The notes: generated by a model from the sequence alone, not told the origin. 64,000 nt of DNA from an uncultured Bacillales bacterium (GCA_945228905.1 CALYOH010000002.1:3706-67705), one strand, 5' to 3'; positions 5,161 through 55,400 are shown, counted from the stretch's first letter. Made by a program: numbers and translations.

Positions 5161-5247
5161 AAAATCACCTACAACATATTATACAATTTAATATGCTTTA
5201 TCACAATATATATGATATACTTATTATTAGAAAGTGAGGAAGAAGAC

Positions 5248-6561
5248 ATGTTAAAACTAAAGAATATAGAAAAAAAACAATTCGATGAATATGTAAAAAA
5301 TCATAAGACTAAATCTCATTTTCTACAATCATTATCTTGGGGAGAATTTGCTAAAGTAAAAAAGAATTTAACTCCATATTATTTAGGACTAGTTAATGAT
5401 AAAGATGAGCTTGTAGGAGCAACCTTATTACTAGAAAAGAAACTACCTATGAATTATACTTACTTTTATGCTCCAAGAGGATTTGTTATAGATTATAAGA
5501 AAAAAGAAATTGTAAGAGAAATGACTAAAAAAGTAGTCGAATTTGCTAAAGGTAAAAAAGCTATATTTGTAAAGATAGATCCAGATATAATTAAAACTTC
5601 ATTTAATTATCTAAATGAAGAAACTAAGAATCCTGATGCAGATGAAATATTTAATACATTAAAAAGTTGTGGATTTAAACATCAAGGTTTTACAAAGAAC
5701 TTTGAAACAATGCAACCAAGATATACATTTAGAATAGATTTAGATCAAAGTTTAGAAGATATAGAAGAACACTTTTCTAAAACAACTAAACAACGTATTG
5801 CTAAATCATTAAAATTAGATACAGAAGTAGTTATAGGAGATCAAAGTGATATTAAAGAATTCTATCATTTAATGACACTTACAGAAAATAGAAAGGATTT
5901 TATTTCATATAATGAAGATTACTATGAAACACTATATGAAATATTTAATGGTAATAAAAATAGTAAAGCTACTTTATTCTTAGGAAAAGTACACATAAAT
6001 AAAACTATTAAAGCATTAGAAAAAAACTTAAAAGTAATAAATAATCAAATATCTATATTACCAATAGATAACTTAAGTAAAAGTGCGAAAGCTAAATTAA
6101 CAGAATTAACTAAACAAAAATATAATATTATTAAAGAAATAGATAAGTATAATGACTATAAAAAAGAATATGGAAATGATATTACATTAAGTGCTCATAT
6201 GATAATAGAGTATGGTGATAAAGCATGGGTTTTATATGCAAGTAACCATAATATATTAAGTGAGACATATGTAAACTATAATACATATTTTGAGCATCTA
6301 AAGTATTGTAAAAATCAAGGATTAAAAATATATGATCAATTTGGTACTATAGGTGACTTATCAAAAGATAATCCAAGGTTAGGACTACATGAATTTAAAA
6401 AGAAATTCGGTGGAGACTATGTAGAATTTTTAGGAGAATGGGATTATATAACTAATCATTTTATGTACTTTATATTTACTAAACTAGTACCAATCTATAG
6501 AAAACTAGTTAGAAGAAAAAGTAAGAAAGAATTAAAAGAAGAAATAAAAAAAGAAACATAA
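5248..6561 (+). CDS. FemAB-family peptidoglycan interpeptide-bridge aminoacyltransferase
   Basis: FLQSLSWGEFAK...YAPRGFVIDY plus a central coiled-coil insertion and a C-terminal LHEFKKKFGG, which is the typical FemX/FemA/MurM architecture. Start set at ATG 5248, preceded by AGTGAGGAAG. Confidence 0.8.
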   Translation: MLKLKNIEKKQFDEYVKNHKTKSHFLQSLSWGEFAKVKKNLTPYYLGLVNDKDELVGATLLLEKKLPMNYTYFYAPRGFVIDYKKKEIVREMTKKVVEFAKGKKAIFVKIDPDIIKTSFNYLNEETKNPDADEIFNTLKSCGFKHQGFTKNFETMQPRYTFRIDLDQSLEDIEEHFSKTTKQRIAKSLKLDTEVVIGDQSDIKEFYHLMTLTENRKDFISYNEDYYETLYEIFNGNKNSKATLFLGKVHINKTIKALEKNLKVINNQISILPIDNLSKSAKAKLTELTKQKYNIIKEIDKYNDYKKEYGNDITLSAHMIIEYGDKAWVLYASNHNILSETYVNYNTYFEHLKYCKNQGLKIYDQFGTIGDLSKDNPRLGLHEFKKKFGGDYVEFLGEWDYITNHFMYFIFTKLVPIYRKLVRRKSKKELKEEIKKET

Positions 6562-6579
6562 GAACTGGTTAGATAAATT

Positions 6580-7266
6580 TCTACACGAAATAGAAAGATC
6601 TAACTATGACTACAGCGATATTTTGTTGCTGTAGTTTTTAGTTTATTTTTGATTTTTATGTTATTATTATAGTTCTAATTTGATTTATAGTTCATCAATA
6701 TTTTTTAGATAATTGTTCTTGATGAAAACTTTAAATTGACCGTTGAGTGTTTCTATCCAAGGATTATGAGTACATGTATATGGGACAGACATACTTGGAA
6801 TAAGATTCATTTCAGCGGTTTTTGTGTTATATATTCCACTTTTATACATACCACCACGATCAGAATGTAATATTACATCATCTAGTTTATAGTCACTATT
6901 ATTTAATAAATTGGAATTTGTACGTATTTCTTTTTCCAGGAAAGTGTTGATTTTTTTAATATTTCATATCCCACATTATTTTCAATTATTTCTACTTTTT
7001 CAATCCTTTTTTATTTTTAAAGCAATATTCTTCGCTTTCTTGAATATACTCTCTAATCCACTTATTAATTGTATCTGTACATTTCTTTTTGCCTAAAACT
7101 ATTCTTTCTACTTCCACTTACTTTCATTTAAGATTTCTTATCAACTAAAACAATTTTTACAGCTTTAATTTTTTCTTCTCTAGTAAAATTTCTATATTCT
7201 CTTGTATACATATCCTCCATTAATTTTAACATATAAAAAATCTACACGCTTTTTATTTCGTGTAGA
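6580..7266 (-). mobile_element. Decayed IS3-family insertion sequence (internally deleted, multiple stops) bounded by imperfect inverted repeats
   Basis: The reverse strand reads an OrfA-like MYTREYRNFTREEKIKAVKIVL... and then an integrase-core tail ...DDVILHSDRGGMYKSGIYNTKTAEMNLIPSMSVPYTCTHNPWIETLNGQFKVF... broken by stops. TCTACACGAAATAGAAAG (6580-6597) matches the reverse complement of 7249-7266 at 17 of 18 positions. Confidence 0.6.
6610..6639 (+). terminator. Rho-independent terminator after the FemAB gene
   Basis: CTACAGC-gatattttgtt-GCTGTAG followed by TTTTT. Confidence 0.6.
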
Positions 7267-7267
7267 T
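7240..7267 (-). terminator. Rho-independent terminator of the WXG/hydrolase operon
   Basis: On the minus strand ATCTACACG-aaataaaaag-CGTGTAGAT is followed by TTTTTT, 40 nt downstream of the last WXG100 gene. Confidence 0.6.
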
Positions 7268-7308
7268 TTTCTTAAAATCACTTATTAAGCTTCTTTTTAT
7301 TTTTAAAA

Positions 7309-7608
7309 TTAGTTTTGTGTAACAACATTGCTTGCTGCAGCATCTGCATCTTCGTTAGCAGCAGTTACATTGTAAATATGATTTCTCATAGTTACTACTT
7401 TATTATAGAATACTTCATAATTCTTACGAATTTCGTTATAACGTTCTCTAGCATTGTCAGCACCTGTACTACCCCAGTTAGAGCCATATAAACTATTCAT
7501 AACTCCATCAATATCATTAAAAATACCCATAATATTTTCAGCATTATTCTTTACACCATCTGCATAACTTCTTGCTCCAGCATAATCTTTTTCTTCAAAC
7601 TCGTTCAT
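7309..7608 (-). CDS. WXG100-family (EsxA/ESAT-6-like) protein
   Basis: 99 aa with a helix-turn-helix composition and a central W-x-G (SNWGSTGADNARERY). SD AAGGAGG upstream. Confidence 0.75.
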   Translation of the reverse strand: MNEFEEKDYAGARSYADGVKNNAENIMGIFNDIDGVMNSLYGSNWGSTGADNARERYNEIRKNYEVFYNKVVTMRNHIYNVTAANEDADAAASNVVTQN

Positions 7609-7622
7609 AATTAACCTCCTTA

Positions 7623-7919
7623 CTAGAATAGACGTGCGCCAGCGTTGGCGTTATCTTCTTCTGTTTTATTTAATATATTTGCAGCAGCACTAATACTTTC
7701 ACCTAAATCATTTAATAAGATTTTAAAAGCATTGAAATTATTAGCTTGTTCTTCATATGAAGCACTAAATTCATTAGCAGACATACCTTTCCATAAAGTC
7801 ATAAGACCATCAATATTAGATCTTAAACTATTTAATTCATTTTCTAGATATTCTGCATTAGCAACAGTATCTTTACCATTAGTGTTCATTGCAGCTGTGT
7901 CAGCATGTAAACCAGACAT
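7623..7919 (-). CDS. WXG100-family (EsxA-like) protein
   Basis: 98 aa with a central LWKGMSANEF (W-x-G). The start was placed at the second ATG to give proper SD spacing (AGGAGG-N8-ATG). Confidence 0.75.
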   Translation of the reverse strand: MSGLHADTAAMNTNGKDTVANAEYLENELNSLRSNIDGLMTLWKGMSANEFSASYEEQANNFNAFKILLNDLGESISAAANILNKTEEDNANAGARLF

Positions 7920-8002
7920 AATCATAACCTCCTATCTATAAAAATTATATCATAATTTGTAAAATTGCATACTCTTTACACTAAAAATTACATTGTTTTA
8001 CA

Positions 8003-8290
8003 TTATATATTTAATGCGGCTAGCTCATCATCTAAACTTTGAATTGCTTGAGCAGCACTTTTAATAAACTCACCAATCTTTTGAGCTTCTTCAGCATTAG
8101 CTTGAGCTAAAGCAACTTGAGCATCACATTGCTTTGTAAAAGAAGTCTTAGCTGATCCATCCCATGAAGCCAAATCACTTGTTACAGTTCCTGAATAATT
8201 AGATACTGCTGATTGTAAATCAGAAGCCATTGAAACCAACTTATCTCCTGCTGAAATAACTTGTTCAACATCACAAACAAACTTTGCCAT
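8003..8290 (-). CDS. WXG100-family protein, related to the N-terminal domain of the two following large proteins
   Basis: 95 aa with SWDGSAKTSF (W-x-G). The N-terminus FVCDVEQVISAGDKL aligns by eye with LFLLDCDSVTSGASSL of the 8302 and 9456 proteins. Confidence 0.75.
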   Translation of the reverse strand: MAKFVCDVEQVISAGDKLVSMASDLQSAVSNYSGTVTSDLASWDGSAKTSFTKQCDAQVALAQANAEEAQKIGEFIKSAAQAIQSLDDELAALNI

Positions 8291-8301
8291 ATTTTTACCT
8301 C

Positions 8302-9444
8302 CTATACATTAGTATCATTAGAATATTTATTAAACATTTCATCTAATATAGATTTATTACTATTTTGTTTTTGTTTTTCTCTTTCAATTATTGCTCTAAA
8401 AGGATTTCTAGAAGTATTACTATCAGTAGTTGTACTATCTGTCGTTGTTGTTGTATTTGTTTTACTATCACCTGTACTATTATTAGTATTAGTATTAGTT
8501 GTAGTATCAGTAGTAGTATTTGTATTATTTTCACTTTTAGCGTTTGGTATTTCAGTCTTAGTAGTATCTTCTAATTTAACTTTACAATTATTAGTAATTT
8601 TCTTTATATCCTTTGTCAAATCAATAGTTATATTATTCTTATTAGCAGCTTTCCATTTTTCAGAATCTATAAAGAAGTTTACAGCATTTTTAGAAGCTTC
8701 TTCATCAGTAACTTGACCAATAACACAGTCAACACTTGTTCCATCTTCTCTAGTAAATGTAATAGCATCCCCAACTTTACCAAATGATTTATCACAAGAG
8801 ATAACATATCTATTACCTAACATTGCATAGCCATCTGTGTTATATTTAAATTTTTCATGTTCAAATAATTCTTTTTCTTCATCAGTTAATTTTTCTTTAT
8901 CTACTTCTTTACAAGTTATCTTCTTAACTTCTGTCTTAATTTCAACAGAATCTTTTCCTTCAAGAATTTGTCTTAATTGTTCTAACTCATCATGAGTTAA
9001 CTCAGATAGAGCAGTTGTTCCTACAGTAGTAGTTGCTCCAGTACCTCCACCACCAGAGTAGCCGCCACCGCCGCCACCTCCTGAGTAGTAGCCACCTCCG
9101 CCACCAGAAGTTCCTCCACCACCGGAAGTTCCTCCACTAGTACTTGTTCTTTTCTGAACTTCATTTTGTTTTTCTTCATTTTTACCATATATTAACTGAT
9201 TTTGAAGAGAAGTATGTGAACTTACTACTGTAGATACAATCTTAGAAGCATTTTGTATTTTTATAGAACATGCTTCAATATTATTAGCAATTGCAGACTT
9301 TGCAGATGCAAAATCAAAACCATCTTCGCAATTTGTATCATATCCACTAACAGAACTTTCAATATTTGAAATTTCTTTAGCAACTGAATCTAATGTAGAT
9401 CCAGTTGATGTTACAGAATCACAATCTAGCATAAATAATGCCAT
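8302..9444 (-). CDS. WXG100-like N-domain / Gly-Tyr linker / unassigned beta-rich module / Thr-Asn-rich tail protein (paralog of 9456-10718 lacking the peptidase domain)
   Basis: The N-terminal about 90 aa are homologous to the 9456 protein (MALFMLDCDSVTS...GFDFASAKS). Linker GGTSGGGGTSGGGGGYYSGGGGGGGYSGGGG. Module KFKYNTDGYAMLGNRYVISCDKSFGKVGDAITFTREDGTSVDCVIGQVTD. C-terminus NTNTTTDTTTNTNTNNSTGDSKTNTTTTTDSTTTD. No signal peptide. Confidence 0.7.
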   Translation of the reverse strand: MALFMLDCDSVTSTGSTLDSVAKEISNIESSVSGYDTNCEDGFDFASAKSAIANNIEACSIKIQNASKIVSTVVSSHTSLQNQLIYGKNEEKQNEVQKRTSTSGGTSGGGGTSGGGGGYYSGGGGGGGYSGGGGTGATTTVGTTALSELTHDELEQLRQILEGKDSVEIKTEVKKITCKEVDKEKLTDEEKELFEHEKFKYNTDGYAMLGNRYVISCDKSFGKVGDAITFTREDGTSVDCVIGQVTDEEASKNAVNFFIDSEKWKAANKNNITIDLTKDIKKITNNCKVKLEDTTKTEIPNAKSENNTNTTTDTTTNTNTNNSTGDSKTNTTTTTDSTTTDSNTSRNPFRAIIEREKQKQNSNKSILDEMFNKYSNDTNV

Positions 9445-9455
9445 ATTCATTCCTC

Positions 9456-10718
9456 CTATACACTTACTGTTTTATCATTACCTTTATATCTTAAAACCCA
9501 TGTCCAATTATTTCCTGTATTTGAAACACTAATTTCATTACCAGATGAATCTCCATTAGAACCATCATAATTAGAATGAGCTCCAACGTTCTTACCATCA
9601 CCTACATACATTTCAGTATGACCATTTCTTAATAATACGTCTCCTGGTTGTAATTGAACTTTTCCAAAGTCATAACATTCAAATCCAACTTTAGTAAATG
9701 CTGCTCTCATATTACCTGTATAAGATGCTCCAGCAGCTTTAACAGGTACACCTGCAGCTTCATATGCACTTATTACCAGTGAAGAACAGTCATAATTTGG
9801 ATTGCCCCATCTTGTTTGTTGTGAATATCCATGACTATTATCATTAGCAATATTTATTGCCCAATCCATAGCAGATTGAACAGACTTATTAGAAGATCTT
9901 AATTTACCAATATTAACAATCTTTGAAATTCCTCCTGCTAAACCTAAAGTTATATTATTAGCATTATCTTTCTTCCATGTTTTTTCATCTCCAAAGAATG
10001 AAACCTTATTCTTGTCTTTAGCATCTTTAGTAATTTGACCTATAATACAATCAACTTTAGTTCCATCTTCTCTAACAAAAGTTATTCTATCTCCAACTTC
10101 TCCAAATGATTCATCACATGAAATAATATATCTATTATCAAGCATTGCATATCCATCTGAATTATATTTAAATTTTTCATCATCAAACAATTCTTGAGCT
10201 TCTTTAGTTAGCTTAGTCTTATCATATGGTATACACTCTACTTCTTTAACTTCTGTTTTTATTTCTTTAACAGTATCTATTAGTCTTAATTGAGTTGCTC
10301 CTGCTGTAGTAGTAGCTGCTGCAGTGACATAGCCACCGCCTCCGCCGCCACCAGAGTAGCCGCCGCCACCACCTGAGTAGTCGCCCCCTCCACCACCGGA
10401 AGTTCCACCTCCAGTACTTGTACTTTCTTGAGCTTTCCTTTGCTCTTCTTCTTTTTTACCATATATTAATTTATTTTGAAGACTAATATGAGAAGTAACT
10501 ACAGAATTAACTAATTTAGATGAGTTTTGTACTTTTGTGGAACAAGCCTCTAAATTAGATGCAATTATAGATTTTGCAGATGCAAAATCAAAACCATCCT
10601 CGCAACTTGTATCATATCCACTTACAGAACTCTCTACATTAGATAATTCCTTTGCAATAGCATCTAAACTACTAGCACCTGAAGTCACACTATCACAATC
10701 AAGCAAAAATAAAGCCAT
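9456..10718 (-). CDS. WXG100-like N-domain fused to an unassigned beta-rich module and a C-terminal NlpC/P60-clan (Amidase_5/CHAP-like) peptidoglycan hydrolase
   Basis: N-terminus MALFLLDCDSVTS...GFDFASAKS. Gly/Tyr linker. C-terminus SHGYSQQTRWGNPNYDCSSLV (catalytic Cys context)...GDVLLRNGHTEMYVG (His)...GAH. No signal peptide. SD AGGAGG upstream. Confidence 0.8.
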   Translation of the reverse strand: MALFLLDCDSVTSGASSLDAIAKELSNVESSVSGYDTSCEDGFDFASAKSIIASNLEACSTKVQNSSKLVNSVVTSHISLQNKLIYGKKEEEQRKAQESTSTGGGTSGGGGGDYSGGGGGYSGGGGGGGYVTAAATTTAGATQLRLIDTVKEIKTEVKEVECIPYDKTKLTKEAQELFDDEKFKYNSDGYAMLDNRYIISCDESFGEVGDRITFVREDGTKVDCIIGQITKDAKDKNKVSFFGDEKTWKKDNANNITLGLAGGISKIVNIGKLRSSNKSVQSAMDWAINIANDNSHGYSQQTRWGNPNYDCSSLVISAYEAAGVPVKAAGASYTGNMRAAFTKVGFECYDFGKVQLQPGDVLLRNGHTEMYVGDGKNVGAHSNYDGSNGDSSGNEISVSNTGNNWTWVLRYKGNDKTVSV

Positions 10719-10730
10719 ATTAATTACCTC

Positions 10731-11552
10731 CTACTTTGGATCCCATTGATCTAATCCATATTGTTCAACTAATTTTATAAGATTTTCTGTATAAGACAAA
10801 CTAGTTGCATAACCAGCTTCCCTAACCGCTTTACATGCTTCCTTATAGTCTTGAGCCTCAATTACAGCCCTATATCTATCATTTGTCAATAATACAGCGT
10901 GATCTTCAATAGAATCAGATAATGAATCATAATCTCTAAATTTTGCAGTTATTTGGACATAACTTCCATCAGCATTTTGTTCTGATGTTCTACATTCTTG
11001 TGTTTTTCCTGTCCAACTATCTCCAGCTTTAATACCAAACACATTATTTCCAATTGAATGTTTTCCCCATCCACTTTCTAGTATAGCTTGAGCTAAAGTT
11101 AATGAAGGTAAAACACCATATTTATTATAAGCTTCAACTGCACCTTCTGCTATCGAATTAATGAAGTCTAATTGATAACCAGATAAGTTTGTAGGATTTA
11201 AATAATCAGAAACAGCACCTGCTCTAATAACTTTACCATTTGTACCTTTTAATTCAAGAATAACATTTGAAGCACTTTTATCCCCTGCTTTATAAGCATT
11301 AGATACATCTATTAGATATTGATTAATAGTTGTAAAATTATCAGTCATTATAGCCATAGACTCATTCATAGCATTAAGTGCTTCTACACAACTATCTGCA
11401 CAAGGTCCCATAAATAATGTATCATTATCAATAATAGTTTTAACATCATTATACGAAACTTGAGCAGTATCAATACTTGCTTTTAATTTATTAGTTGTAG
11501 TAATAGCATCACTAAATATACCATAATCACTTACTGAATATTTTTCATTCAT
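10731..11552 (-). CDS. WXG/LXG-like helical N-domain fused to a GH73 N-acetylglucosaminidase
   Basis: The N-terminal about 100 aa (MNEKYSVSDYGIFSDAI...LFMGPCADSCVEAL...) form a helical hairpin with F-M-G at the turn. C-terminus LAQAILESGWGKHSIGNNVFGIK...GYATSLSYTENL carries the canonical GH73 motifs. No signal peptide. Confidence 0.8.
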   Translation of the reverse strand: MNEKYSVSDYGIFSDAITTTNKLKASIDTAQVSYNDVKTIIDNDTLFMGPCADSCVEALNAMNESMAIMTDNFTTINQYLIDVSNAYKAGDKSASNVILELKGTNGKVIRAGAVSDYLNPTNLSGYQLDFINSIAEGAVEAYNKYGVLPSLTLAQAILESGWGKHSIGNNVFGIKAGDSWTGKTQECRTSEQNADGSYVQITAKFRDYDSLSDSIEDHAVLLTNDRYRAVIEAQDYKEACKAVREAGYATSLSYTENLIKLVEQYGLDQWDPK

Positions 11553-11565
11553 CTAATCACACCTT

Positions 11566-12387
11566 TTAGGTATTGTATTTATTATAAATGTTACTTGCAT
11601 AACCCTCTCTTGTACTTGTATTAGCATCTGCAGATTTCTCATAAACATTATGGAATTTAGCAGCAGCTTGTGAAGCAGATGTAGCATTTTTCATATCACT
11701 AGATAAATCTGCTCCCATCTCTTGAATCATAAAATCAAGTTGCCCACCTAAACTATCTATATTTTCAGGACCTAAATAATCATATAAAGCAGCTTTTCTT
11801 GTATGATATGTCCATTGAGCAATACCAAATCCACGAGAATCATTTGCGAAATCTTCTCTAGAAATAGTACCATTCTTTATACCAGCAACATAATCAGCAT
11901 CTTCATAACCCATTCCATTTTGAACATTATCTGCTCTAAAATTAGATTCTTGTTGAAGATTACCCATTATACCAGCAGCTCCTTGTGGAGAAAAACCTTT
12001 ACTAACTAAGTAATTATAAATTTGTTCCTCATTACTGTTACCAGTTAAATTTCCACCTTCACCAACACGTAATTGAGTTCCATTAATTGATAACACTTTA
12101 TTAGCTGCAGCAGTATCACCACTTTTATATGCAGTAGCAACTTCAGCTAAATAATTACTTATAGTAGTGAAATTATCATTAATTGTACTCATTCCACTAT
12201 CTAATGAACTAACTGCTTCTACACAACTATCTGCACAAGGTCCCATAAACACTGCATCATTATCAATAATGCCTTTTACATCATTTACTGTAGTCTTTGC
12301 AGAATCAACACTGACCTTTAATTTATTAGTTGTTGATATAGCATCACTAAAAATACCATAATCACTTATTGAATAATTCTCATTCAT
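11566..12387 (-). CDS. WXG/LXG-like helical N-domain fused to a phage-tail-lysozyme-like (GNxxxES family) peptidoglycan hydrolase
   Basis: The N-terminus is paralogous to the 10731 protein (MNENYSISDYGIFSDAIS...VFMGPCADSCVEAV). C-terminus AAGIMGNLQQESNF...GFGIAQWTYHTRK...QLDFMIQEM matches the Phage_lysozyme2-type signature from memory. 1-nt TAATG overlap with the upstream gene. Confidence 0.7.
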   Translation of the reverse strand: MNENYSISDYGIFSDAISTTNKLKVSVDSAKTTVNDVKGIIDNDAVFMGPCADSCVEAVSSLDSGMSTINDNFTTISNYLAEVATAYKSGDTAAANKVLSINGTQLRVGEGGNLTGNSNEEQIYNYLVSKGFSPQGAAGIMGNLQQESNFRADNVQNGMGYEDADYVAGIKNGTISREDFANDSRGFGIAQWTYHTRKAALYDYLGPENIDSLGGQLDFMIQEMGADLSSDMKNATSASQAAAKFHNVYEKSADANTSTREGYASNIYNKYNT

Positions 12388-13256
12388 TATTTATCACCAT
12401 TATATCTAAGAACCCAAGTCCAACTATTACCTGTATTAGAAACTCCAACTTCTGAACCAGAAGAGTCTCCATCAACACCATCTTTATTTCCATGAGCTCC
12501 AACGTTTTTACCATCACCAATATACATTTCAGTGTGACCATCTCTAAGTAAAACATCTCCAGGTTGTAAATCTACACTACCAAAGTCATAACAATCAAAA
12601 CCTGTTTGAGTAAATGCACTTCTCATATTACCTGTATATGTAGCTCCATTTGTTTTTACCGGAATACCAGCTGCTTCATAAGCACTAATAACAAATGAAG
12701 AGCAGTCATAATTTGGATTACCCCATCTTGTTTGTTGTGAATATCCATGTGAATCATCTGCTGCTGTAGCCATGGCCCAATCAATAGCACCTTGTACACC
12801 CGCACTTGATCCCGCAGATTGAGTAACCTTTCCACTTGCATTAACACTTGGATTCATAGAAGAAGCCTCTAATTTAACACTAGTAACAGAACTTAAAGCC
12901 TGCTCTATTTGTCCTTTTAAATTACTAAGTTCTGATTCATACGTACTAATTTTAGATGAAAACTCACTAGTACTTTCTCCTGTAGCAGATGCAGTATTAT
13001 AATTAGATCTTGCTATATTTAAATTATCTTTTGTAGTTTTATATCGTTCATATAAGTCACATGCATTTGCAAATGAACTCATTTGCCCTTTTATTGCCCC
13101 AGAAAATTCAGAAGAAAAACTTGTAGCTTTAGATTCAAAGTTATCATGAGAATTTCCCTTCCAAGAGCTTGAAGTTTCACTAACTGCACTATCAAATTTT
13201 GATAAAGCTGAAGCAATAGAACTAGCATCAGAATTAACTGTACCACTACTAACCAT
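12387..13256 (-). CDS. WXG100/LXG-like N-domain (about 140 aa) fused to an NlpC/P60-clan (Amidase_5/CHAP-like) peptidoglycan hydrolase
   Basis: N-terminus SSWKGNSHDNFESKA (W-x-G) followed by a long helix. The C-terminal domain is highly similar to that of 9456-10718 (SHGYSQQTRWGNPNYDCSSFV...GHTEMYIG...GAH). Start set at ATG 13256 (AGGAGG-N7-ATG). No signal peptide. Confidence 0.8.
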   Translation of the reverse strand: MVSSGTVNSDASSIASALSKFDSAVSETSSSWKGNSHDNFESKATSFSSEFSGAIKGQMSSFANACDLYERYKTTKDNLNIARSNYNTASATGESTSEFSSKISTYESELSNLKGQIEQALSSVTSVKLEASSMNPSVNASGKVTQSAGSSAGVQGAIDWAMATAADDSHGYSQQTRWGNPNYDCSSFVISAYEAAGIPVKTNGATYTGNMRSAFTQTGFDCYDFGSVDLQPGDVLLRDGHTEMYIGDGKNVGAHGNKDGVDGDSSGSEVGVSNTGNSWTWVLRYNGDK

Positions 13257-13309
13257 ACACATGCCTCCTATTTTCATATACTATATAATCATTTTACCAT
13301 TTATATAAG

Positions 13310-13367: not shown

Positions 13368-15020
13368 CTATTTCTTCATAATTATTCTTTTAATACTATT
13401 AATTATATTTTTACCAAATACTTCATTAGTTATTCCACTAAAATGAATATAAATAAAGTATACTATTGCTCCTACTAATCCATAGAAAGCTATTATTCCT
13501 AAATTAACAATTCTAGTAGATGAACAAGTAGGAATAAATAATCCAATAACTGTAAGTACTAAAATCATTAATATAGATCCACATAATATTTCTATAATGA
13601 ATTTAACTATATTTTCAAATAATACTTTATATTTAATCTTTAATATTAAAATACAACAAATAAATGATATTAAATATCCAATTATACTAGCAGTAATAAC
13701 TCCATAATATGGAGGTAAATTAATAAGCATAAACACTCTTAATAAACTAATATTTAATAATAATTTAATTAGTACACCAATGACTAAACTAATAAATACA
13801 GCTTTATAATCTTTTAGTGTTTGTAATACAGTAACAACAGTAGTAAATAAACCAGTAAATAAACCAACAAATATATAATAACTTAATACACTTGCTCCAT
13901 ATAAACTTTCTCCATAAAATAAAGTCCAAATAGCATCAGATAAGAAACTAATTCCAAAAGAAATAGGAACAGTTAAATATAATAATATACTTAAAGCCTG
14001 AACTATTTTTCTATGTATTTGTTTTTCTTCTTTTTTAACAATACTCTCAGTTAAATTAGGTATTAAACTAACAACAACACCAGTTGATATAGAAAGAACT
14101 ATCATATTAAATTTAGCTCCCCATGTTGATAAAATACTATATACATTTTCAGCATCACTTGCACTATATTTAGCATAATCAACTAATCCTCTAACTACAG
14201 TAAACATATCAATATAATTATATAGTGACTTAAATATATCAATCATTATAAATGGAAAAGCATAAATAACTATCTTTTTTATAATTGCTTTATCACTTAT
14301 ATATGGTTCATTAACATCTCTTGCTTTAGTATCAAATTTAGATTTATTCTTAAATAATTTATCAACAAGATAAATATAAGATACTAATGCTCCTAAAGTT
14401 GCTCCAAAAAGAGCTACTCCTACAGAAGTACTTAAATCTAAATGTAAATATTTAATACTTACTAAACTACCAAATATAATAATTAAAACTCTCACTAATT
14501 GTTCTAATACTTGGGATATTGATGGAGCAGACATAAATCTATGTCCCTCAAAATATCCTCTATAAATACTAAGTACTGGTACTACTAATATTGCTGTTCC
14601 TATTACTCTAATAACTAAAGTAATATCTTCTATACTATTACCACCTACTACGTCACCCATAACAGCTTTAGCAAGTAATGGAGCAAATATAGTAATGATT
14701 ATAAATGAAATAATACCAAGTACTAACGCAATTCTTTTTCCTAAAACAAACGCTCTTTTTTTAATATTATAATATCCCAAAGTTTGATATTCAGATACTA
14801 TTTTACTAATTGCTAGAGGTATACCTGCAGAAGATAAAGACATAAAAAGCAAATAGATAGTATAAGCATATCCATATAAAGCACCGCCAGCATCACCAAT
14901 AATAGCATGAAATGGAATAACATATAATATACCCAATATCTTGGCAATAACTATACCAATAGTTGTAATAAGAGCTCCATTAACAAATGAAGTTTTTCTC
15001 ATAGTAATATCTTTCTTCAT
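13368..15020 (-). CDS. MOP-superfamily polysaccharide/lipid II flippase (MurJ/SpoVB/YtgP-like)
   Basis: 550 aa with about 14 predicted TM segments. N-terminus SFVNGALITTIGIVIAKILGILYVIPF is typical of this family. Confidence 0.7.
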   Translation of the reverse strand: MKKDITMRKTSFVNGALITTIGIVIAKILGILYVIPFHAIIGDAGGALYGYAYTIYLLFMSLSSAGIPLAISKIVSEYQTLGYYNIKKRAFVLGKRIALVLGIISFIIITIFAPLLAKAVMGDVVGGNSIEDITLVIRVIGTAILVVPVLSIYRGYFEGHRFMSAPSISQVLEQLVRVLIIIFGSLVSIKYLHLDLSTSVGVALFGATLGALVSYIYLVDKLFKNKSKFDTKARDVNEPYISDKAIIKKIVIYAFPFIMIDIFKSLYNYIDMFTVVRGLVDYAKYSASDAENVYSILSTWGAKFNMIVLSISTGVVVSLIPNLTESIVKKEEKQIHRKIVQALSILLYLTVPISFGISFLSDAIWTLFYGESLYGASVLSYYIFVGLFTGLFTTVVTVLQTLKDYKAVFISLVIGVLIKLLLNISLLRVFMLINLPPYYGVITASIIGYLISFICCILILKIKYKVLFENIVKFIIEILCGSILMILVLTVIGLFIPTCSSTRIVNLGIIAFYGLVGAIVYFIYIHFSGITNEVFGKNIINSIKRIIMKK

Positions 15021-39378: not shown

Positions 39379-40401
39379 CTATTGTATTCTACGTACTGAA
39401 AGTAATGATGTACCAGATCCATTTATCCAGTAATCAACATTATCTAACACAACTCCAGTACCAGAGTTAGCTGCATGAATCATCATACCATTTCCTACAT
39501 ATAATGCAGAGTGAGTAACATTACCATATCCATATCCCCAACTTAATATATCTCCAGGTTGTGCATCAGCATAACTAACACCAACACCATCATATATTTG
39601 AGTATATGAACTTCTACTTACATATTTACCCACACATGAATATACATATTGAACAAAACCACTACAGTCAAATCCATAAGGACCATTAGATCCACTAATA
39701 TATGGCATTCCAAGTAATGAATAAGCAATTGATACAACATCATTACCAACAGGATTTGCTGGAACATTATAATTAATACCATAAATATATTGTGGAGTTG
39801 GTTGAACAACTTCTAATGTAAATGTAAAAGTAGAACTGTTTCCAGATTTATCAACAGCATTAACAGAAATTTCATGATTACCTACACTATTAATATCTTC
39901 ATTGTAATTAATACTATAATAATTAACAGAATCTTCCTTTATTTCTTCACTAGAAATATTAATATCTCCATCAATTTCATCCAATACTGATTCTATATTT
40001 TCTTCAGGATTATAATTATCACCCTGAGTAATAGTCACCTTTTCTTCTTTTACTTTAATTACAGGTGCAACAGAATCTACTACAGTAATAACAATAGGAA
40101 CTTCTTTTACTACATTATCCTTTTGTACTTCAAGTATGACTTCTTGTTCACCAATTTTATTAACATCTATATCTTGTATAACAGATATAATATTACCTTC
40201 AACCTCTTCAATAAATTCTTTTACGTTGTAATTCGCACTTCCGTATTCTACAGAAGGAGTATCTTTAACTACAACTTTTATGCTTTGATAAGTATAGTAA
40301 TTATGATATACATAGCAGCTAACTAGCATAATAAATGATAACATCATCAACCCTGAGAATCTCTTTATTCTTAGCTTCGACGACCCATCAGTTGATTTCA
40401 T
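39379..40401 (-). CDS. NlpC/P60 (C40) cell-wall peptidase with Ig-like repeats
   Basis: TM/signal anchor, two repeat domains, and a C-terminal YGFDCSGFVQYVY...HSALYVG...IHA (Cys-His-His). Confidence 0.8.
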   Translation of the reverse strand: MKSTDGSSKLRIKRFSGLMMLSFIMLVSCYVYHNYYTYQSIKVVVKDTPSVEYGSANYNVKEFIEEVEGNIISVIQDIDVNKIGEQEVILEVQKDNVVKEVPIVITVVDSVAPVIKVKEEKVTITQGDNYNPEENIESVLDEIDGDINISSEEIKEDSVNYYSINYNEDINSVGNHEISVNAVDKSGNSSTFTFTLEVVQPTPQYIYGINYNVPANPVGNDVVSIAYSLLGMPYISGSNGPYGFDCSGFVQYVYSCVGKYVSRSSYTQIYDGVGVSYADAQPGDILSWGYGYGNVTHSALYVGNGMMIHAANSGTGVVLDNVDYWINGSGTSLLSVRRIQ

Positions 40402-40427
40402 AAAATTTCCTCCCACGAATGCAGTAT

Positions 40428-47990: not shown

Positions 47991-48299
47991 CTATTTAACC
48001 AGCCTATCTCTTTGTTCAATAACACTGGTATCTACAGTTTCATTAGCAGCTGAGATATTCTCTTTAACTGCATTAACTAAATTGTCTGTATTAACGGCTT
48101 TTCCATATACATTTGAGAGTTCACTTCTAAATTCACCAATCTTACCTGAAAGTCCTTTTAAGTAATTTAAATATTCAAAATTACTTGGAACAGTCATTGC
48201 ACAATACTCTTGTGCACTAGATAAATGTGATAATGAATCCTCAACCATAGGTTTAATTTTAGATGAAATACCATCATTAGGATAAATTAATTTACTCAT
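47991..48299 (-). CDS. Small alpha-helical T7SS-associated protein (no W-x-G)
   Basis: 102 aa with helical heptad-like composition. 1-nt overlap with the upstream WXG-like gene. Family not recognised. Confidence 0.5.
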   Translation of the reverse strand: MSKLIYPNDGISSKIKPMVEDSLSHLSSAQEYCAMTVPSNFEYLNYLKGLSGKIGEFRSELSNVYGKAVNTDNLVNAVKENISAANETVDTSVIEQRDRLVK

Positions 48300-48583
48300 T
48301 ATTCTTCTCCTTGCTTAGCTTTTGTTACAGTAGTATCTATCATATTAGCACTCTCTGTAATTGCTTTAGAAAAGGACTTAATTCCATCACCAACATTCAT
48401 TAGCTCATTCTTATCAAGTAAAACCATATTTACATAGTCTTTTGCTCTTCCACCTGTCCATTCTTTAGTATCAGGTAAATTAACAAACTTATTAAACAAT
48501 TCGGTAATCTTTCCTTGATATTCTGCTGCTAATGAGTTGATAGCTGCCGCGTGATTACGCATTTCTTCAGTATTTATCTTCAT
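48299..48583 (-). CDS. WXG100-like protein
   Basis: 94 aa with a central KEWTGGRAKDY (W-x-G). No gap to the upstream gene. Confidence 0.65.
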   Translation of the reverse strand: MKINTEEMRNHAAAINSLAAEYQGKITELFNKFVNLPDTKEWTGGRAKDYVNMVLLDKNELMNVGDGIKSFSKAITESANMIDTTVTKAKQGEE

Positions 48584-48892
48584 CTAATCAGCCCCTATCT
48601 CAGCTATTTTATTATGGCATTTAATAATAGCTCTATCCACAGCTGGAATAACCGTATTTTTTATAAAATTAGCAGTTGTAGTTATATCTTCTCTAACATT
48701 CTTTACATTTGTACATAGTGTACTATCATTATCATCTAATGAATAACATTCATTCAATGTTCCAGAAAAGTCATCTAAACTACCTTTAGATAAAGTTAAT
48801 TCACTTACAATACTAGAAAGATTAGCTTTAACAGCATTATATCTAGAAATAGCATTTCTATATGAATTAATAGCTTCCTCTTTTGTAGCCAT
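48584..48892 (-). CDS. Small alpha-helical T7SS-associated protein (no W-x-G)
   Basis: 102 aa with a predicted helix-loop-helix. Located in the WXG array. Confidence 0.5.
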   Translation of the reverse strand: MATKEEAINSYRNAISRYNAVKANLSSIVSELTLSKGSLDDFSGTLNECYSLDDNDSTLCTNVKNVREDITTTANFIKNTVIPAVDRAIIKCHNKIAEIGAD

Positions 48893-48915
48893 AACTACAC
48901 CACCCTTTTATTATA

Positions 48916-49377
48916 TTATCCGATTTCAACTTTAGAAGCTGCTGATGCAACATCTTCAGCATCACTTGAAACAGCTTCAGATAATGAAGTATCTCCTGAT
49001 TGATATTTTTCATAAGCATCATCAAGTTCAGTATTCCATTTTTCAACTAATTTAACATATGCATCTAATAATGATTTAGTAGATGTAATGAATTCAGTCA
49101 TAGCTGTACCAGCTTGTCCTTTGAATGTTTGCTCTAAATCAGCTGAAGTATCATATGTATCAACGATTTCTTGAACGTTAGAAGCATATGTATTGATTGC
49201 AGATTTTAAAGCCTCAAAGTTACTAACTCCTGCAAATCCTCCATCCCAGATGTTTGCAACGAAAGATCCGATATTGTTAGCCAATCCACTAACAGCTCCC
49301 CATGCAGCATCTAAGAATGAACTAATTCTTTGTCCTACTGTTGACTTAACGTCACCAATTATACTTTGAATTCCCAT
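48916..49377 (-). CDS. Extended WXG100-like protein with Gly/Ala/Ser-rich N-terminal extension
   Basis: 153 aa. The N-terminal 50 aa contain AAWGAVSGLANNIGSFVANIWDGGFAG, followed by a helical hairpin with FKGQAGTAM at the turn. Confidence 0.5.
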   Translation of the reverse strand: MGIQSIIGDVKSTVGQRISSFLDAAWGAVSGLANNIGSFVANIWDGGFAGVSNFEALKSAINTYASNVQEIVDTYDTSADLEQTFKGQAGTAMTEFITSTKSLLDAYVKLVEKWNTELDDAYEKYQSGDTSLSEAVSSDAEDVASAASKVEIG

Positions 49378-49389
49378 TAATTTCTCCTC

Positions 49390-49701
49390 CTATCTCTTTT
49401 CAATTAAATCTTGATCGATTTCAGCTAGTCCTGCAAGAACCTTTTGGAACTCAGCAACAAGTCCTTCATATGCTGCATCTAATCCTTTACAAATTTCATC
49501 AACATCATGCTCCATATTAGACATAAAGTTATTAGCAGATTGTCCAACCCAACATGCATGAACTTCGTCTCTTAAAGTAGCAAGATTATTACGTAGTGCA
49601 TTTTTTGCAGTTACAACACAATCGTTATGAACGTGGTTTAATGTTGAAACCATATTACTTTGATCGTATCCAATTGTAGCACCTTCGATACCTAAAGCCA
49701 T
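49390..49701 (-). CDS. WXG100-family (EsxA-like) protein
   Basis: 103 aa with a central ACWVGQSANNF (W-x-G). Confidence 0.75.
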   Translation of the reverse strand: MALGIEGATIGYDQSNMVSTLNHVHNDCVVTAKNALRNNLATLRDEVHACWVGQSANNFMSNMEHDVDEICKGLDAAYEGLVAEFQKVLAGLAEIDQDLIEKR

Positions 49702-49712
49702 TAAATCACCTC

Positions 49713-50096
49713 CTACATATTTTCAATTTTACTGGCTTTATCTTTTGTATCCTCAGTAATAGAATCAATTAAGAACGCAATAGTTCTATCACCTGTTCTA
49801 ACCTTATTAATAACTGCAATAAGGTCATCTGAATATGAAACAATATTATCTTTTACAATAGAATAATTCTTTTTAAAATCTCTATATTTTGTCATAAGAG
49901 CAGAATACTCATCAGACTCATAACAATTCTTTAGAGAATCCATTTTAGCATCAATCTTTGAAAAAATATCAGTAACATCTTCAGATATAGTGAGAATATC
50001 CATAGCTAAAGTAGATAAATCTTCTTCGTTAATAGCTAACTCAACATCTTCATCAGCAACTAATCCGATACTTTCTTGCATATTAATATCCTCCAT
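49713..50096 (-). CDS. Acidic WXG100-sized helical protein lacking W-x-G (first gene of the array)
   Basis: 127 aa with the turn region NCYESDEYSAL in place of W-x-G. SD GGATGGAGGA upstream. Confidence 0.5.
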   Translation of the reverse strand: MEDINMQESIGLVADEDVELAINEEDLSTLAMDILTISEDVTDIFSKIDAKMDSLKNCYESDEYSALMTKYRDFKKNYSIVKDNIVSYSDDLIAVINKVRTGDRTIAFLIDSITEDTKDKASKIENM

Positions 50097-52175: not shown

Positions 52176-52192
52176 ATGTCTATTTTATTTTT
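52152..52192. terminator. Bidirectional terminator between the GNAT gene and esaB
   Basis: ATAGACAT-tttaaattaa-ATGTCTAT is flanked by an A-run and a T-run. The loop contains the GNAT stop codon. Confidence 0.55.
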
Positions 52193-52445
52193 AGAAAAAA
52201 ACTAATTGAGATCCATTTCTTATATTTGTATCTCTAATTAATTTTTCATAAGGATAAACCTCAGAAGAAAATTTATTACATAAAGCAACAGTATCACTAA
52301 TAGGATATAACCCATTTGTATCTTCATTAATCATTTTATTAATTAATCTACATACATCTCCTATCGCTCTATTAATTGGTAAATATACTTCATAAGTTTT
52401 TTCTATCTCTGGAACAAGAATAGTAACTAATACTTTATATTCCAT
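52191..52445 (-). CDS. esaB: YukD/EsaB-like ubiquitin-fold T7SS protein
   Basis: 84 aa. The pattern YEVYLPINRAIGDVCRLI...IRNGSQLVFF matches the beta-grasp EsaB/YukD layout. TAATG overlap with the essC stop. Confidence 0.6.
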   Translation of the reverse strand: MEYKVLVTILVPEIEKTYEVYLPINRAIGDVCRLINKMINEDTNGLYPISDTVALCNKFSSEVYPYEKLIRDTNIRNGSQLVFF

Positions 52446-55400
52446 TAATCATCACCATCCATCATAGTCTTAATTAATGTATAAGTAGAATCCTTAATCA
52501 AGTAAGCCATACCAGCGTAATTGTACTTCTTATCTTCTTCAGATAAGTCATTTGTAACTAATACGGATTGAGATTCAATTCCAGGACCTAACCACATACC
52601 TTTAGTAGTATCCATTGTATTATACCAAGGTTGTAGTTTTAATAACTTAAACTTCTTATAATCATCTATTAAGAAGAATATATTTTGTTTACAATTAGCT
52701 ATTCCATTAAACATACTATCAGCAAATTCTTGACCAACTTTATCTAATTTACCTTTTATAGAACCAGCTCCAAGAATAATATTAATTGCTAAAGGTTGAG
52801 TATCAGTACGAGACTTAACATCTTTATCTATAGCAGCAAATATAACTCTTAAATCATCTTGGAATAATTTAATGTCAAGAATTGGTTTTTCAAATGCACC
52901 AAGAACATCGATTACTCTAACTACTGTGTTAGGAATCTTAGTTAATAAATTAGCAAGTGCATATATGAAAGGCATACTAGATTTCATATCTTTTGTAATA
53001 ATTGGATATAGTTTTGTTTCACTAATATCAAGTTTAGCAATATCTTTCTCATAGAAATTATATCCAATAGGTAAATCTTTAATAGTAGTAATATACTTAA
53101 CAAGATCTTCACTAGTAATATTATCAGGTATAGTAGCAATCTTCTTAGCTCTAGTAGTGTAATTATTATTAAGTACCTCTGCTACTTGCTTTAAATATGC
53201 TAATTCATTTTCAGGAGTAGTAATCTTAGCAGTTTGGAATTCAGCATAAGAATCATCATCATTAGTAACTTTACAAATTCCTCTTCCATATAAATTACTT
53301 GGAAGTAATCCCTTACGACAATTAGTTAAGTTTCTATATTGAGACTCATCTTGTAGATTTAATACTATTAATCTATTAAAGTATTGTAATACTCTTGGTC
53401 TAAATGTATTTTGAGCAGATGCAGTTAAGATAAATATAATTCCATATCTTGGAGCATCCCTGAATAAAGCATTTAAACTATCTACTACTTTAGCTAAGAC
53501 TTCTCCAAATACATCAAATGCATTAATAACTAAACATATTACTGGTAATACTTCACCACTATGAGTATTATAGTATTCTAAAGATCCATTGAAATCTTGG
53601 AATAATACTTTACGTTTATTTAATTCATCCATTACTAATTGAATAACTCCACCCACTCGTTCCATATCATCTTGGAAAACAACTTCTCCAACATGTGGGA
53701 ATTTAGCAAATTTACGTAATGTTTCAGCTCCAAAATCAAGAATATAATAATTTATCTCTTGAGGAGTATGTTCTGTCATACTAGAGAATAGTATTGAAGA
53801 AACCAACATTTCTTTTCCTGATCCAGGTTGTCCAACAATTGCAATATTACCATCAGCTATATTAACTGTAAGAATATCTTGTTTTTGTTCTCTTGGTTCA
53901 TCATATTCACCAATAACAGTAGTAAAATCTAACTTTTTAGGTTGGAAACCATATCTCTTCTTAACTTCTGTTAAATAAATATCTTCAGGAATGTTAGGCA
54001 ACCATAATTGTTGTTTAACAAACTTTTCTTCTTGAGAAATATTACTAATATATTTAACTATATTAAGTAACTCTTCTCCTTCACTCTCTTCATTCTTCTT
54101 CTCTTCAACATTATCAAAATAATTAATTATTTTACCAATATTATTAATATATTGAACAGATTGATCAACAGTATGCTTAACTATATCAGAAGGATAATAC
54201 TTAGCACCTGCCCATGCAGATTGACCTAAGTTATAATATTCATCATTACCTACTTCCAAATAGAAAGCTCCAGTTTGTTTTAAATAAGCTGCATCAGGCT
54301 TCTTTAATATTTCATTTGAATCAGACTTATCTTGAACTCTTAAACAAACTTTAAATCTTGAGTTTGACCAGATTTGATCATTAACAACTCCAGAAGGTTT
54401 TTGAGTTGCTAGAATCAAGTGAACTCCTAAAGAACGTCCGATACGTGATGTAGAAATTAACTGTTCCATAAATTCAGGTTGTTGTTGTTTTAACTCAGCA
54501 AACTCATCACAAATAATAAGTAAGTGACTTAGAGGTATATCAACAGCACCTTTTCTATAATATTGTTGATACTTATAGATATCCATTTGACCTTCTTTTA
54601 ATTTCTCACGTGCATCATTAAATATAGATTGACGTCTTTTTAATTCTGATTCAATAGATGCAATAGATCTATTAATAGCAGATTTATCAAGGTTTGTAAT
54701 TGTACCAGCAAGATGTGGAAGTTTAATACCTAACTCATGGTTCTCAAAACTCATGGCAAGACCTCCACCCTTATAGTCGATAAGTACAAATTGTACTTCA
54801 TCAGGACTAAAGTTAACAGCTAAAGATAAAATATAAGTAACAATCCATTCTGATTTACCCGAACCAGTAGTACCAGCTACTAATCCATGTGGACCATATA
54901 CTTTTTCATGTATATCCATCTTAAAAGCTTCACCATTTTGATCAATACCAATTGGTACACTTAATGAATTAACCGGATTATTAGATTTCCATCTTTCCAA
55001 ACTATTTAATTGTTCTACTCTACCAACATTAAACATTTCAAGGAATGATAATGATTTAGGTAACTCATATTTTCCTTTTTCTAGTAAAATAGGAGTATTT
55101 GCTAATATTAAAGCAACATTATACATATTAATTGGTGTAGTAAAATCAACTTGAAATTCATTCTTATCATCAAGTTTTAACTTATTAGTAAATAAACCAG
55201 ATTTCTCTTTATTAACACTAATAAAAGTATGGGTTTGATCAGGTAAAGTACTTAATCTATCATTTTCAATTAATAAAGTAAATCCAAGATTTCTCTTATA
55301 ATTTAATATCTTTTTAACTAATGAAGTACTTCTAATAGACTCAATACTATCAGTAAACAATATAAAGTATGGTTTATATTTCTTATAAGGTTCCTCAGTG

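Follow-up and report, generated by a model that had tools for sequence, protein, structure and literature searches.

The 64,000-nt stretch of DNA analyzed here, hereafter the window, comes from an uncultured Bacillales bacterium (GCA_945228905.1, CALYOH010000002.1:3706-67705) and contains, from position 13277 to 7309, eight co-directional open reading frames (ORFs) on the minus strand, separated by gaps of 5-77 nt. Five genes (8302-13256) encode fusions that begin with a short N-terminal domain of one of three families, F1, F2, or F3, and are followed by three genes (7309-8290) for free WXG100 proteins of 95, 98, and 99 aa (W95, W98, and W99). Taken together, the evidence presented below indicates that this is probably an accessory island of polymorphic envelope hydrolases without signal peptides, exported via a type VII secretion system (T7SS), whose N-terminal modules have been shuffled among enzymes and whose free WXG100 proteins are not one-to-one cognates of the fusions. 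Judged from sequence, the T7SS is the most likely route by which these hydrolases leave the cell. The source genome is a 1.56-Mb metagenome-assembled genome (MAG) of ~27% GC, and its gut and rumen relatives carry the labels uncultured Bacilli, Bacillales, or 'Mollicutes'.

Domain architecture of the island proteins

Alignments of homologues placed true starts at 13256 (MVSSG), 9444 (MALF), and 7919 (MSGL); the last of these yields the 98-aa length originally given for W98, the ORF of which had been listed as 100 aa. The division of the N-terminal domains into three families was borne out, the members of the F1 and F2 pairs being alike and F3 being distinct from both. The most upstream gene (12387-13256, minus strand; ORF open from 13277, with 13256 the likely start) joins an F3 domain of ~135 aa, made up of a WxG hairpin and a third helix, to a predicted peptidoglycan peptidase of the NlpC/P60 (ELLD-type) class (Pfam ELLD, 5.5e-10; NlpC_P60, 1.3e-5; WXG100, 23.5 bits). 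The next two genes encode F2 domains of ~115 aa with an FMGP turn and a conserved YxxGD, fused in one case to Phage_lysozyme2 (11566-12387, minus strand; PF18013, 3.8e-31) and in the other to a GH73-type Glucosaminidase (10731-11552, minus strand; PF01832, 5e-33). The F2 domains share 55-60% identity over 112-126 aa, and the 55% identity between the 10731 and 11566 proteins is confined to residues 1-126. No pairwise similarity was found between their payloads, as expected from the earlier statement that F2 carries two unrelated glycosidase domains.

The last two fusions consist of an F1 domain, a Gly-rich linker, and a beta-rich region referred to here as Dmid, followed by an NlpC/P60 module (ELLD/NlpC_P60) in the 9456 protein (9456-10718, minus strand) and by a Thr/Asn-rich tail in the 8302 protein (8302-9444, minus strand), in which no known Pfam domain was found. 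Their F1 domains are 74% identical over 95 aa, and identity over 330 aa in all is 58%. By BLASTP, the 9456 protein is a chimera: its residues 1-300 correspond to the 8302 protein (58%) and its residues 276-414 to the 12387 protein (76%). The estimate that the F1- and F3-borne NlpC/P60 domains are roughly three-quarters identical was accurate, the 12387 and 9456 proteins sharing 76.3% identity over 139 aa. Scores for the NlpC/P60 modules were 39.8 and 42.1 bits for ELLD (cut-off 27) and 25.5 and 23.1 bits for NlpC_P60 (cut-off 23), and D-C-S-S and H were invariant in the corresponding alignment (A8). With these Pfam scores and the conserved Cys and His, both are predicted to be active as peptidoglycan peptidases. 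A hydrophobic leader was found in none of the eight island proteins.

Residues 165-295 of the 8302 protein, within Dmid, were modelled by AlphaFold2 (AF2) as a confident, beta-rich fold (predicted local distance difference test [pLDDT] 87-93). The best Foldseek matches, MltA and expansin, are double-psi beta-barrels, but with E-values of 0.03-0.06 they were not significant, and Pfam found nothing in this region. Because the top structural matches are non-significant, the likeness to a double-psi beta-barrel is tentative and a wall-binding or transglycosylase-like role is a suggestion only. Dmid (residues ~140-295) is conserved between the 8302 and 9456 proteins and is common in metagenomes; it may represent an undescribed family of wall-binding or wall-cleaving domains.

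Domain shuffling across the genus

Profile searches for F1, F2, F3, W95, W98, and W99 were carried out in 41 genomes of the genus. In addition, 48 loci were fetched and all WXG-like domains were clustered at ≥35 bits, a threshold used since iterated searches with hidden Markov models fused the WXG families by profile drift. Six clean clusters resulted, comprising 25 F1, 37 F2, 34 F3, 32 W95, 19 W98, and 19 W99 domains. Payloads were surveyed in the C-terminal parts of 109 fusions and in 120 database homologues; on metagenome contigs, the families have more than 1000 homologues. At least 10 enzyme domain types are borne by F1, F2, and F3 among 41 species of the genus and metagenome proteins. 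NlpC/P60 is found on all three families alike, Glucosaminidase and Peptidase_C39_2 on F2 and F3, CHAP on F1 and F3, Phage_lysozyme2 and GDSL on F2, and M23, alpha/beta-hydrolase, and NAGPA on F3; Dmid is found on F1 and, in a single case, on F2.

In a tree of NlpC modules, the F1- and F3-borne copies of G000 and the sister species G004 formed one clade (100/99 support). The module therefore passed, by copying or conversion, from one to the other of an F3 and an F1 gene in this lineage, and the tree agrees with BLASTP in pointing to a lineage-specific copy event as the origin of the chimeric 9456 gene. Well-supported branches in the tree require at least 2-3 changes of N-family label. The payload survey and the tree strongly support the proposal that recombination has occurred at domain junctions, as in polymorphic toxins, and show it to be wider than was first seen. 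We suggest that flexible Gly/Ser/Thr-rich linkers are the sites at which the N-terminal modules have recombined, again and again, with a set of ten or more wall-active domains, and that the products may have an antibacterial or wall-remodelling role.

A sixth fusion of the same genome lies outside the window on contig C12 (17526-18428, minus strand) and joins an F3 domain to Peptidase_M23 (E 2e-26). It is an isolated gene, flanked by metG and tatD and without a WXG100 gene in its vicinity.

Relationship of the N-terminal domains to free WXG100 proteins

The three free genes encode W95 (8003-8290, minus strand), W98 (7623-7919, minus strand), and W99 (7309-7608, minus strand), the last being the obligate neighbor of W98. 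W98 (39.2 bits, 8.7e-10) and W99 (31.1 bits, 2.9e-7) exceed the Pfam WXG100 (PF06013) cut-off of 27.3 bits, and W95, at 26.3 bits, falls slightly below it. W95 was joined to the W98 family by hhalign at 96% probability, with a score of 54.6 over 91 columns; the corresponding values for W98 and W99 were 80% and 32.9 over 86 columns. As a null, the same family profiles were compared with their column order reversed, which gave a top score of 20.8. Smith-Waterman z-scores were obtained from shuffles of the window's own sequences.

All three N-families scored above the null against at least one free protein. F1 and W95 gave an hhalign score of 30.2 over 32 columns (probability 70%), with 30-32% identity over ~80 aa and a z-score of 4.6-6.0; the resemblance between them that had been noticed by inspection is therefore real, though weak. 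F2 and W99 scored 31.0 over 92 columns (probability 71%; z 5.3-6.1). This is the top profile match of F2, so that W99, which had been left for F2 by elimination, is indeed its closest free relative by profile. F3 scored 30.2 over 44 columns with W95 and 28.2 over 41 columns with W98. The 'WKG turn' held to link F3 to W98 is shared by the two, but it is a generic WxG hallmark that also occurs in W95, and by z-score F3 is nearer to W95 (6.7) than to W98 (2.5). Comparisons of F1, F2, and F3 with one another gave scores of 13.1-18.3, inside the null range. This weak but above-null similarity supports the view that the N-domains are diverged, distant homologues of WXG100 proteins. Whether the free genes might be unrelated to the N-domains was checked, and such a view does not hold, since distant homology appears to connect them.

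The families differ in how much of the WXG100 signature they retain. An invariant W-x-G is present in F3 (23.5 bits against WXG100), an F-x-G-P turn occurs in F2 (15 bits), and F1 is without WxG. In the F2 alignment (A2), F47, G49, P50, Y87, and D91 are near-invariant; Y87 and D91 form the YxxGD late in helix 2, to be set beside the YxxxD/E-type export motif. No equivalent of that motif was identified in F1, F3, or W95. The AF2 model of F3 consists of helices 11-37, 42-99 (after the WKG turn), and 104-132, all at a pLDDT of 87-97, with the NlpC fold next. For F1, in the 8302 protein, a hairpin of helices 10-35 and 47-102 was modelled at low confidence (pLDDT ~55). As diverged helical domains of the WXG100 superfamily, F1, F2, and F3 would serve as export or targeting modules.

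Distribution of free WXG100 genes and the pairing of fusions

A search with the single W95 sequence found homologues in 28 of 37 same-genus genomes and in none of 24 other genera. By profile, F1, F3, and W95 were each detected in 30 of the 41 genomes and F2 in 28, and the set of genomes with W95 equalled that with F1 and F3 except for G023 (69% complete) and G010 (60%); W95 thus went together with the fusions wherever completeness was adequate. Strong matches to W98 and W99 occurred in an identical set of 24 genomes and were adjacent in all of them. As a rule, the gene order was F3 fusions, (F2), F1 fusions, W95, W98, W99, (F2 fusions).

The original prediction held that W95-F1, W98-F3, and W99-F2 may be dedicated pairs, each forming a four-helix bundle recognized by EssC. 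Such pairing would fit the finding that W95 and W99 are the closest free relatives of F1 and F2, the ~25 loci in which an F1 gene is followed directly by W95, and the rule that LXG toxins have cognate small helical partners (PMC10765036). Resemblance of two domains does not by itself show that they bind, however. The pairing does not fit the closer relationship of F3 to W95 than to W98, and comparative genomics does not support it: W98 and W99 are inseparable. Three genomes, G001 (96% complete), G061 (91%), and G032 (86%), have kept F1, F2, F3, and W95 and are devoid of W98 and W99, and G036 (94%) has W98 and W99 without F2. W95 is present without F1 in at least six loci, directly beside F2 and/or F3 fusions; at the second loci of G031 and G011, which have F2/F3 fusions only, W95 is intact and forms its own clade. 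Conversely, G013 and G028 have an F1 fusion with W98-W99 immediately after it, W95 being absent there. We therefore regard a one-to-one assignment as improbable.

Other aspects of the distribution bear on the same question. At the G023 site, W98-W99 stand alone. Numerous additional fusions of the F2 and F3 families lie dispersed, without a WXG100 neighbor (up to 6 F2 and 7 F3 in a single genome), and these dispersed fusions far exceed the free WXG100 genes in number. The idea that W95 has sub-families tuned to F1- or F2-linked contexts was rejected, since the 8 label changes in the W95 tree equal the shuffled expectation.

A second alternative is that the fusions pair with one another, F3 with F1 in particular, two enzymes leaving as a heterodimer, and that the free WXG100 proteins are substrates in their own right or parts of the machine. 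An F3 gene lies directly upstream of an F1 gene in ~20 loci, and a 445-aa protein of G025 has F3-like (49 bits) and F1-like (46 bits) domains in tandem before a membrane anchor, which could be taken as a Rosetta-stone hint. That protein, however, is no hydrolase, and the species that encodes it is the most divergent one. Moreover, the two families occur in unequal numbers, with three F3 to one F1, or F3 without F1, in several loci; the F3-M23 gene on C12 is alone among housekeeping genes; and F3 models confidently as a three-helix unit by itself. Mutual pairing of the fusions thus seems unlikely.

In the tandem protein of G025 (L073; C11:4885-6222, minus strand), the F3-like and F1-like domains precede a low-complexity region of acidic character, a single transmembrane helix, and a tail that is likewise acidic. 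Another ORF of this genome (L074; C12:3216-4496, minus strand), which runs past the contig end, has an F2-like domain (31 bits) at residues 304-413; it may be a substrate of reversed domain order or an artefact of ORF calling.

On the simplest reading of these distributions, W98 and W99 would be an obligate, dispensable, and self-contained pair, and W95 the sole free WXG100 protein tied to the fusions as a class. Under the explanation that we prefer, namely a T7SS-exported island with shuffled modules and shared WXG100 proteins, W98 and W99 would form a heterodimer like EsxA/EsxB. The leading candidate for a small partner or co-substrate common to the fusions would be W95, which would complete a four-helix bundle with their hairpins. 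One could go further and view the short, WXG100-sized hairpins as a minimal one-adaptor system, in which W95 serves all three N-families promiscuously and a stripped-down type VIIb system (T7SSb) with EssC and YukD, and lacking any recognizable EssA, EssB, or EsaA, exports an immunity-free cocktail of peptidoglycan and teichoic-acid hydrolases. We consider this extended version conceivable but doubtful.

Insertion site and possible link to type VII secretion

The island always lies between murJ, which encodes a MurJ/Wzx-type flippase, and a convergent femAB. In the window, the upstream border gene is at 13368-15020 (minus strand; Pfam Polysacc_synt and MurJ, and synteny) and the FemAB-family gene at the downstream border is at 5212-6561 (plus strand; Pfam FemAB, 4.7e-74). 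The island is accessory, because murJ directly abuts femAB in seven species that are free of it. We considered whether FemAB could be an immunity factor in the style of lysostaphin and Lif and rejected the idea: femAB, often as a tandem pair, occupies the site with and without the island and so is not an immunity gene specific to it.

The 747 bp between femAB and W99 (6562-7308) are not empty but consist of a repeated element, with copies elsewhere in the genome at 90% identity (751 bp, contig C39) and 73-84% (contig C80). Read by eye on the minus strand, the element resembles a decayed insertion sequence or transposase. In the sister species G004, the gap between femAB and W99 is just 20 bp.

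The candidate exporter in the window is an EssC-type FtsK/SpoIIIE ATPase (52445-57019, minus strand; Pfam FtsK_SpoIIIE, 5.8e-47, and FHA) with a YukD-like gene beside it (52191-52445), and six small helical genes are located at 47991-50096. A second essC was found on contig C14 (8328-12896, minus strand); it is 40% identical to that of the window and is followed by a YukD-like gene of 84 aa and two small helical genes. The C14 type is conserved in 41/41 genomes, and the window type (≥50% identity) was found only in G004, G013, G016, and G015. Genes of these families lie close to essC in three other genomes. In G009, the order is W95, W98, W99, essC, with 219 bp between W99 and essC, and in G026 and G006 F3 fusions are located 2-3 kb downstream of essC. 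A correlation of essC with the island was tried as evidence and proved uninformative, essC being present in all 41 genomes at 1-4 paralogues each.

The proximity to essC in these three genomes bears on a third alternative, that the proteins are not T7SS substrates and that their N-domains are nothing more than coiled coils for the oligomerization or regulation of lysins or autolysins of phage origin, released by a different route, for example through lysis or holins. ELLD, Phage_lysozyme2, and Amidase_5 are payload families associated with phages, the same NlpC module occurs widely in Clostridia genomes that lack these N-domains, and in its own genome the island is not beside essC. However, the N-domains appear homologous to WXG100 proteins, the operon itself includes three bona fide WXG100 genes, G009 has the island directly against essC and G026 and G006 have fusions near it, and the flanks of the island are free of phage structural, holin, or integrase genes. 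Release independent of the T7SS is accordingly, in our judgement, very unlikely.

Several observations weigh against the explanation that we favor, a shuffled, T7SS-exported hydrolase island. The presence of essC does not discriminate, because it is also found in the 11 genomes that showed no fusion genes, and the nearer essC of the source genome is 39 kb from the island. The island, all of whose ORFs are fusions or WXG100 genes, has no immunity genes, and for antibacterial T7SS toxins this would be out of the ordinary. The phage association of ELLD, Phage_lysozyme2, and Amidase_5 counts on the same side, as does the fact that F1 and F2 are without the WxG motif and below Pfam thresholds, with the F1 hairpin modelled at the low pLDDT given above. 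The shared-partner role proposed for W95 draws on co-occurrence and adjacency, and the F1 genes of G013 and G028 adjoin W98-W99 instead. Finally, it is for an uncultured MAG that we infer T7SS export of these proteins.

The window also encodes a conventional NlpC/P60 hydrolase (39379-40416, minus strand) that has immunoglobulin-like repeats and, at its N-terminus, a segment of membrane or signal type. Since its product carries this segment, the organism appears to have Sec-type wall hydrolases as well.

Comparison with known systems

Most of what is known about polymorphic T7SS effectors concerns LXG toxins, each of which has partner and immunity genes of its own. The island differs in its WXG100-sized modules, in the presence of three N-families in one operon, in a cargo of envelope hydrolases only, and in the absence of immunity genes together with free WXG100 genes that are apparently shared rather than cognate. 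If export is true, the rules for T7SSb signals would be widened, and T7SS-delivered wall-degrading cocktails would be suggested as a strategy of competition or wall remodelling in abundant uncultured Bacilli of gut and rumen. The genus also offers a natural "domain-swap matrix", a data set for asking which part of a substrate specifies recognition by the T7SS.

A close comparison is with the LXG toxins of T7SSb, such as those with Lap1/Lap2 or EsxB/C/D (Tel of S. intermedius, EsaD of S. aureus, and YxiD of B. subtilis); LXG toxins have immunity proteins and dedicated helical partners of the Lap/Esx kind (PMC10765036). Like these, the island proteins combine a WXG-superfamily N-domain with swappable payloads, and the island has small WXG100-like helical genes in the operon and a recombining, polymorphic architecture. 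The N-domains, however, are 95-135 aa long, unlike the ~200 aa of LXG, and none of the five window fusions matched Pfam LXG (PF04740) at E-values up to 1; the F3-M23 paralogue on C12 scored 14.1 bits against a cut-off of 26.5. Where LXG toxins each have a dedicated upstream pair, the small genes of the island are downstream and common to many fusions, with 3 free genes for 5-9 fusions and a distribution that is not family-specific in place of a Lap-like pair per toxin. Nor was an adjacent cognate immunity gene found, all ORFs being fusions or WXG100 genes with 5-77 nt between them. The payloads also differ from those of LXG systems in that all are wall-active enzymes, in tandem arrays.

EatA, a toxin of the mycobacterial ESX-4 system, consists of a helical bundle and a cell-wall glycosidase and is accompanied by Tap partners and an immunity lipoprotein; the survey in the same report predicted NlpC/P60 and alpha/beta-hydrolase payloads (PMC13444075). 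The EatA/TapA1-A2/EatI system of Mycobacterium abscessus (PMC13444075) is thus likened to the island by architecture, both having an N-terminal helical bundle, a wall-degrading enzyme, and small helical partners. It differs in belonging to the type VIIa system (T7SSa) of Actinomycetota, in having only one toxin at each locus, and in the presence of a cognate immunity gene that encodes a lipoprotein.

Among dimers of the EsxA/EsxB type, W98 and W99 find parallels in their length of ~100 aa, WxG motif, adjacency, and co-inheritance, the dimer in our case being putative, and W95 resembles a stand-alone EsxA. Unlike EsxA/EsxB, the three genes are part of the substrate island and, G009 excepted, do not head an ess locus. 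EssH of S. aureus, a CHAP hydrolase that enables T7SS secretion, likewise ties a peptidoglycan hydrolase to T7SSb, but it is a single conserved gene whose product has a Sec signal peptide, whereas the island proteins have WXG-like domains, no signal peptide, and high variability. These comparisons suggest that the island works like the LXG and EatA systems, yet lies outside the LXG family by domain match, partner genes, and immunity genes alike, and that it may best be viewed as a variant of the polymorphic T7SS-substrate theme.

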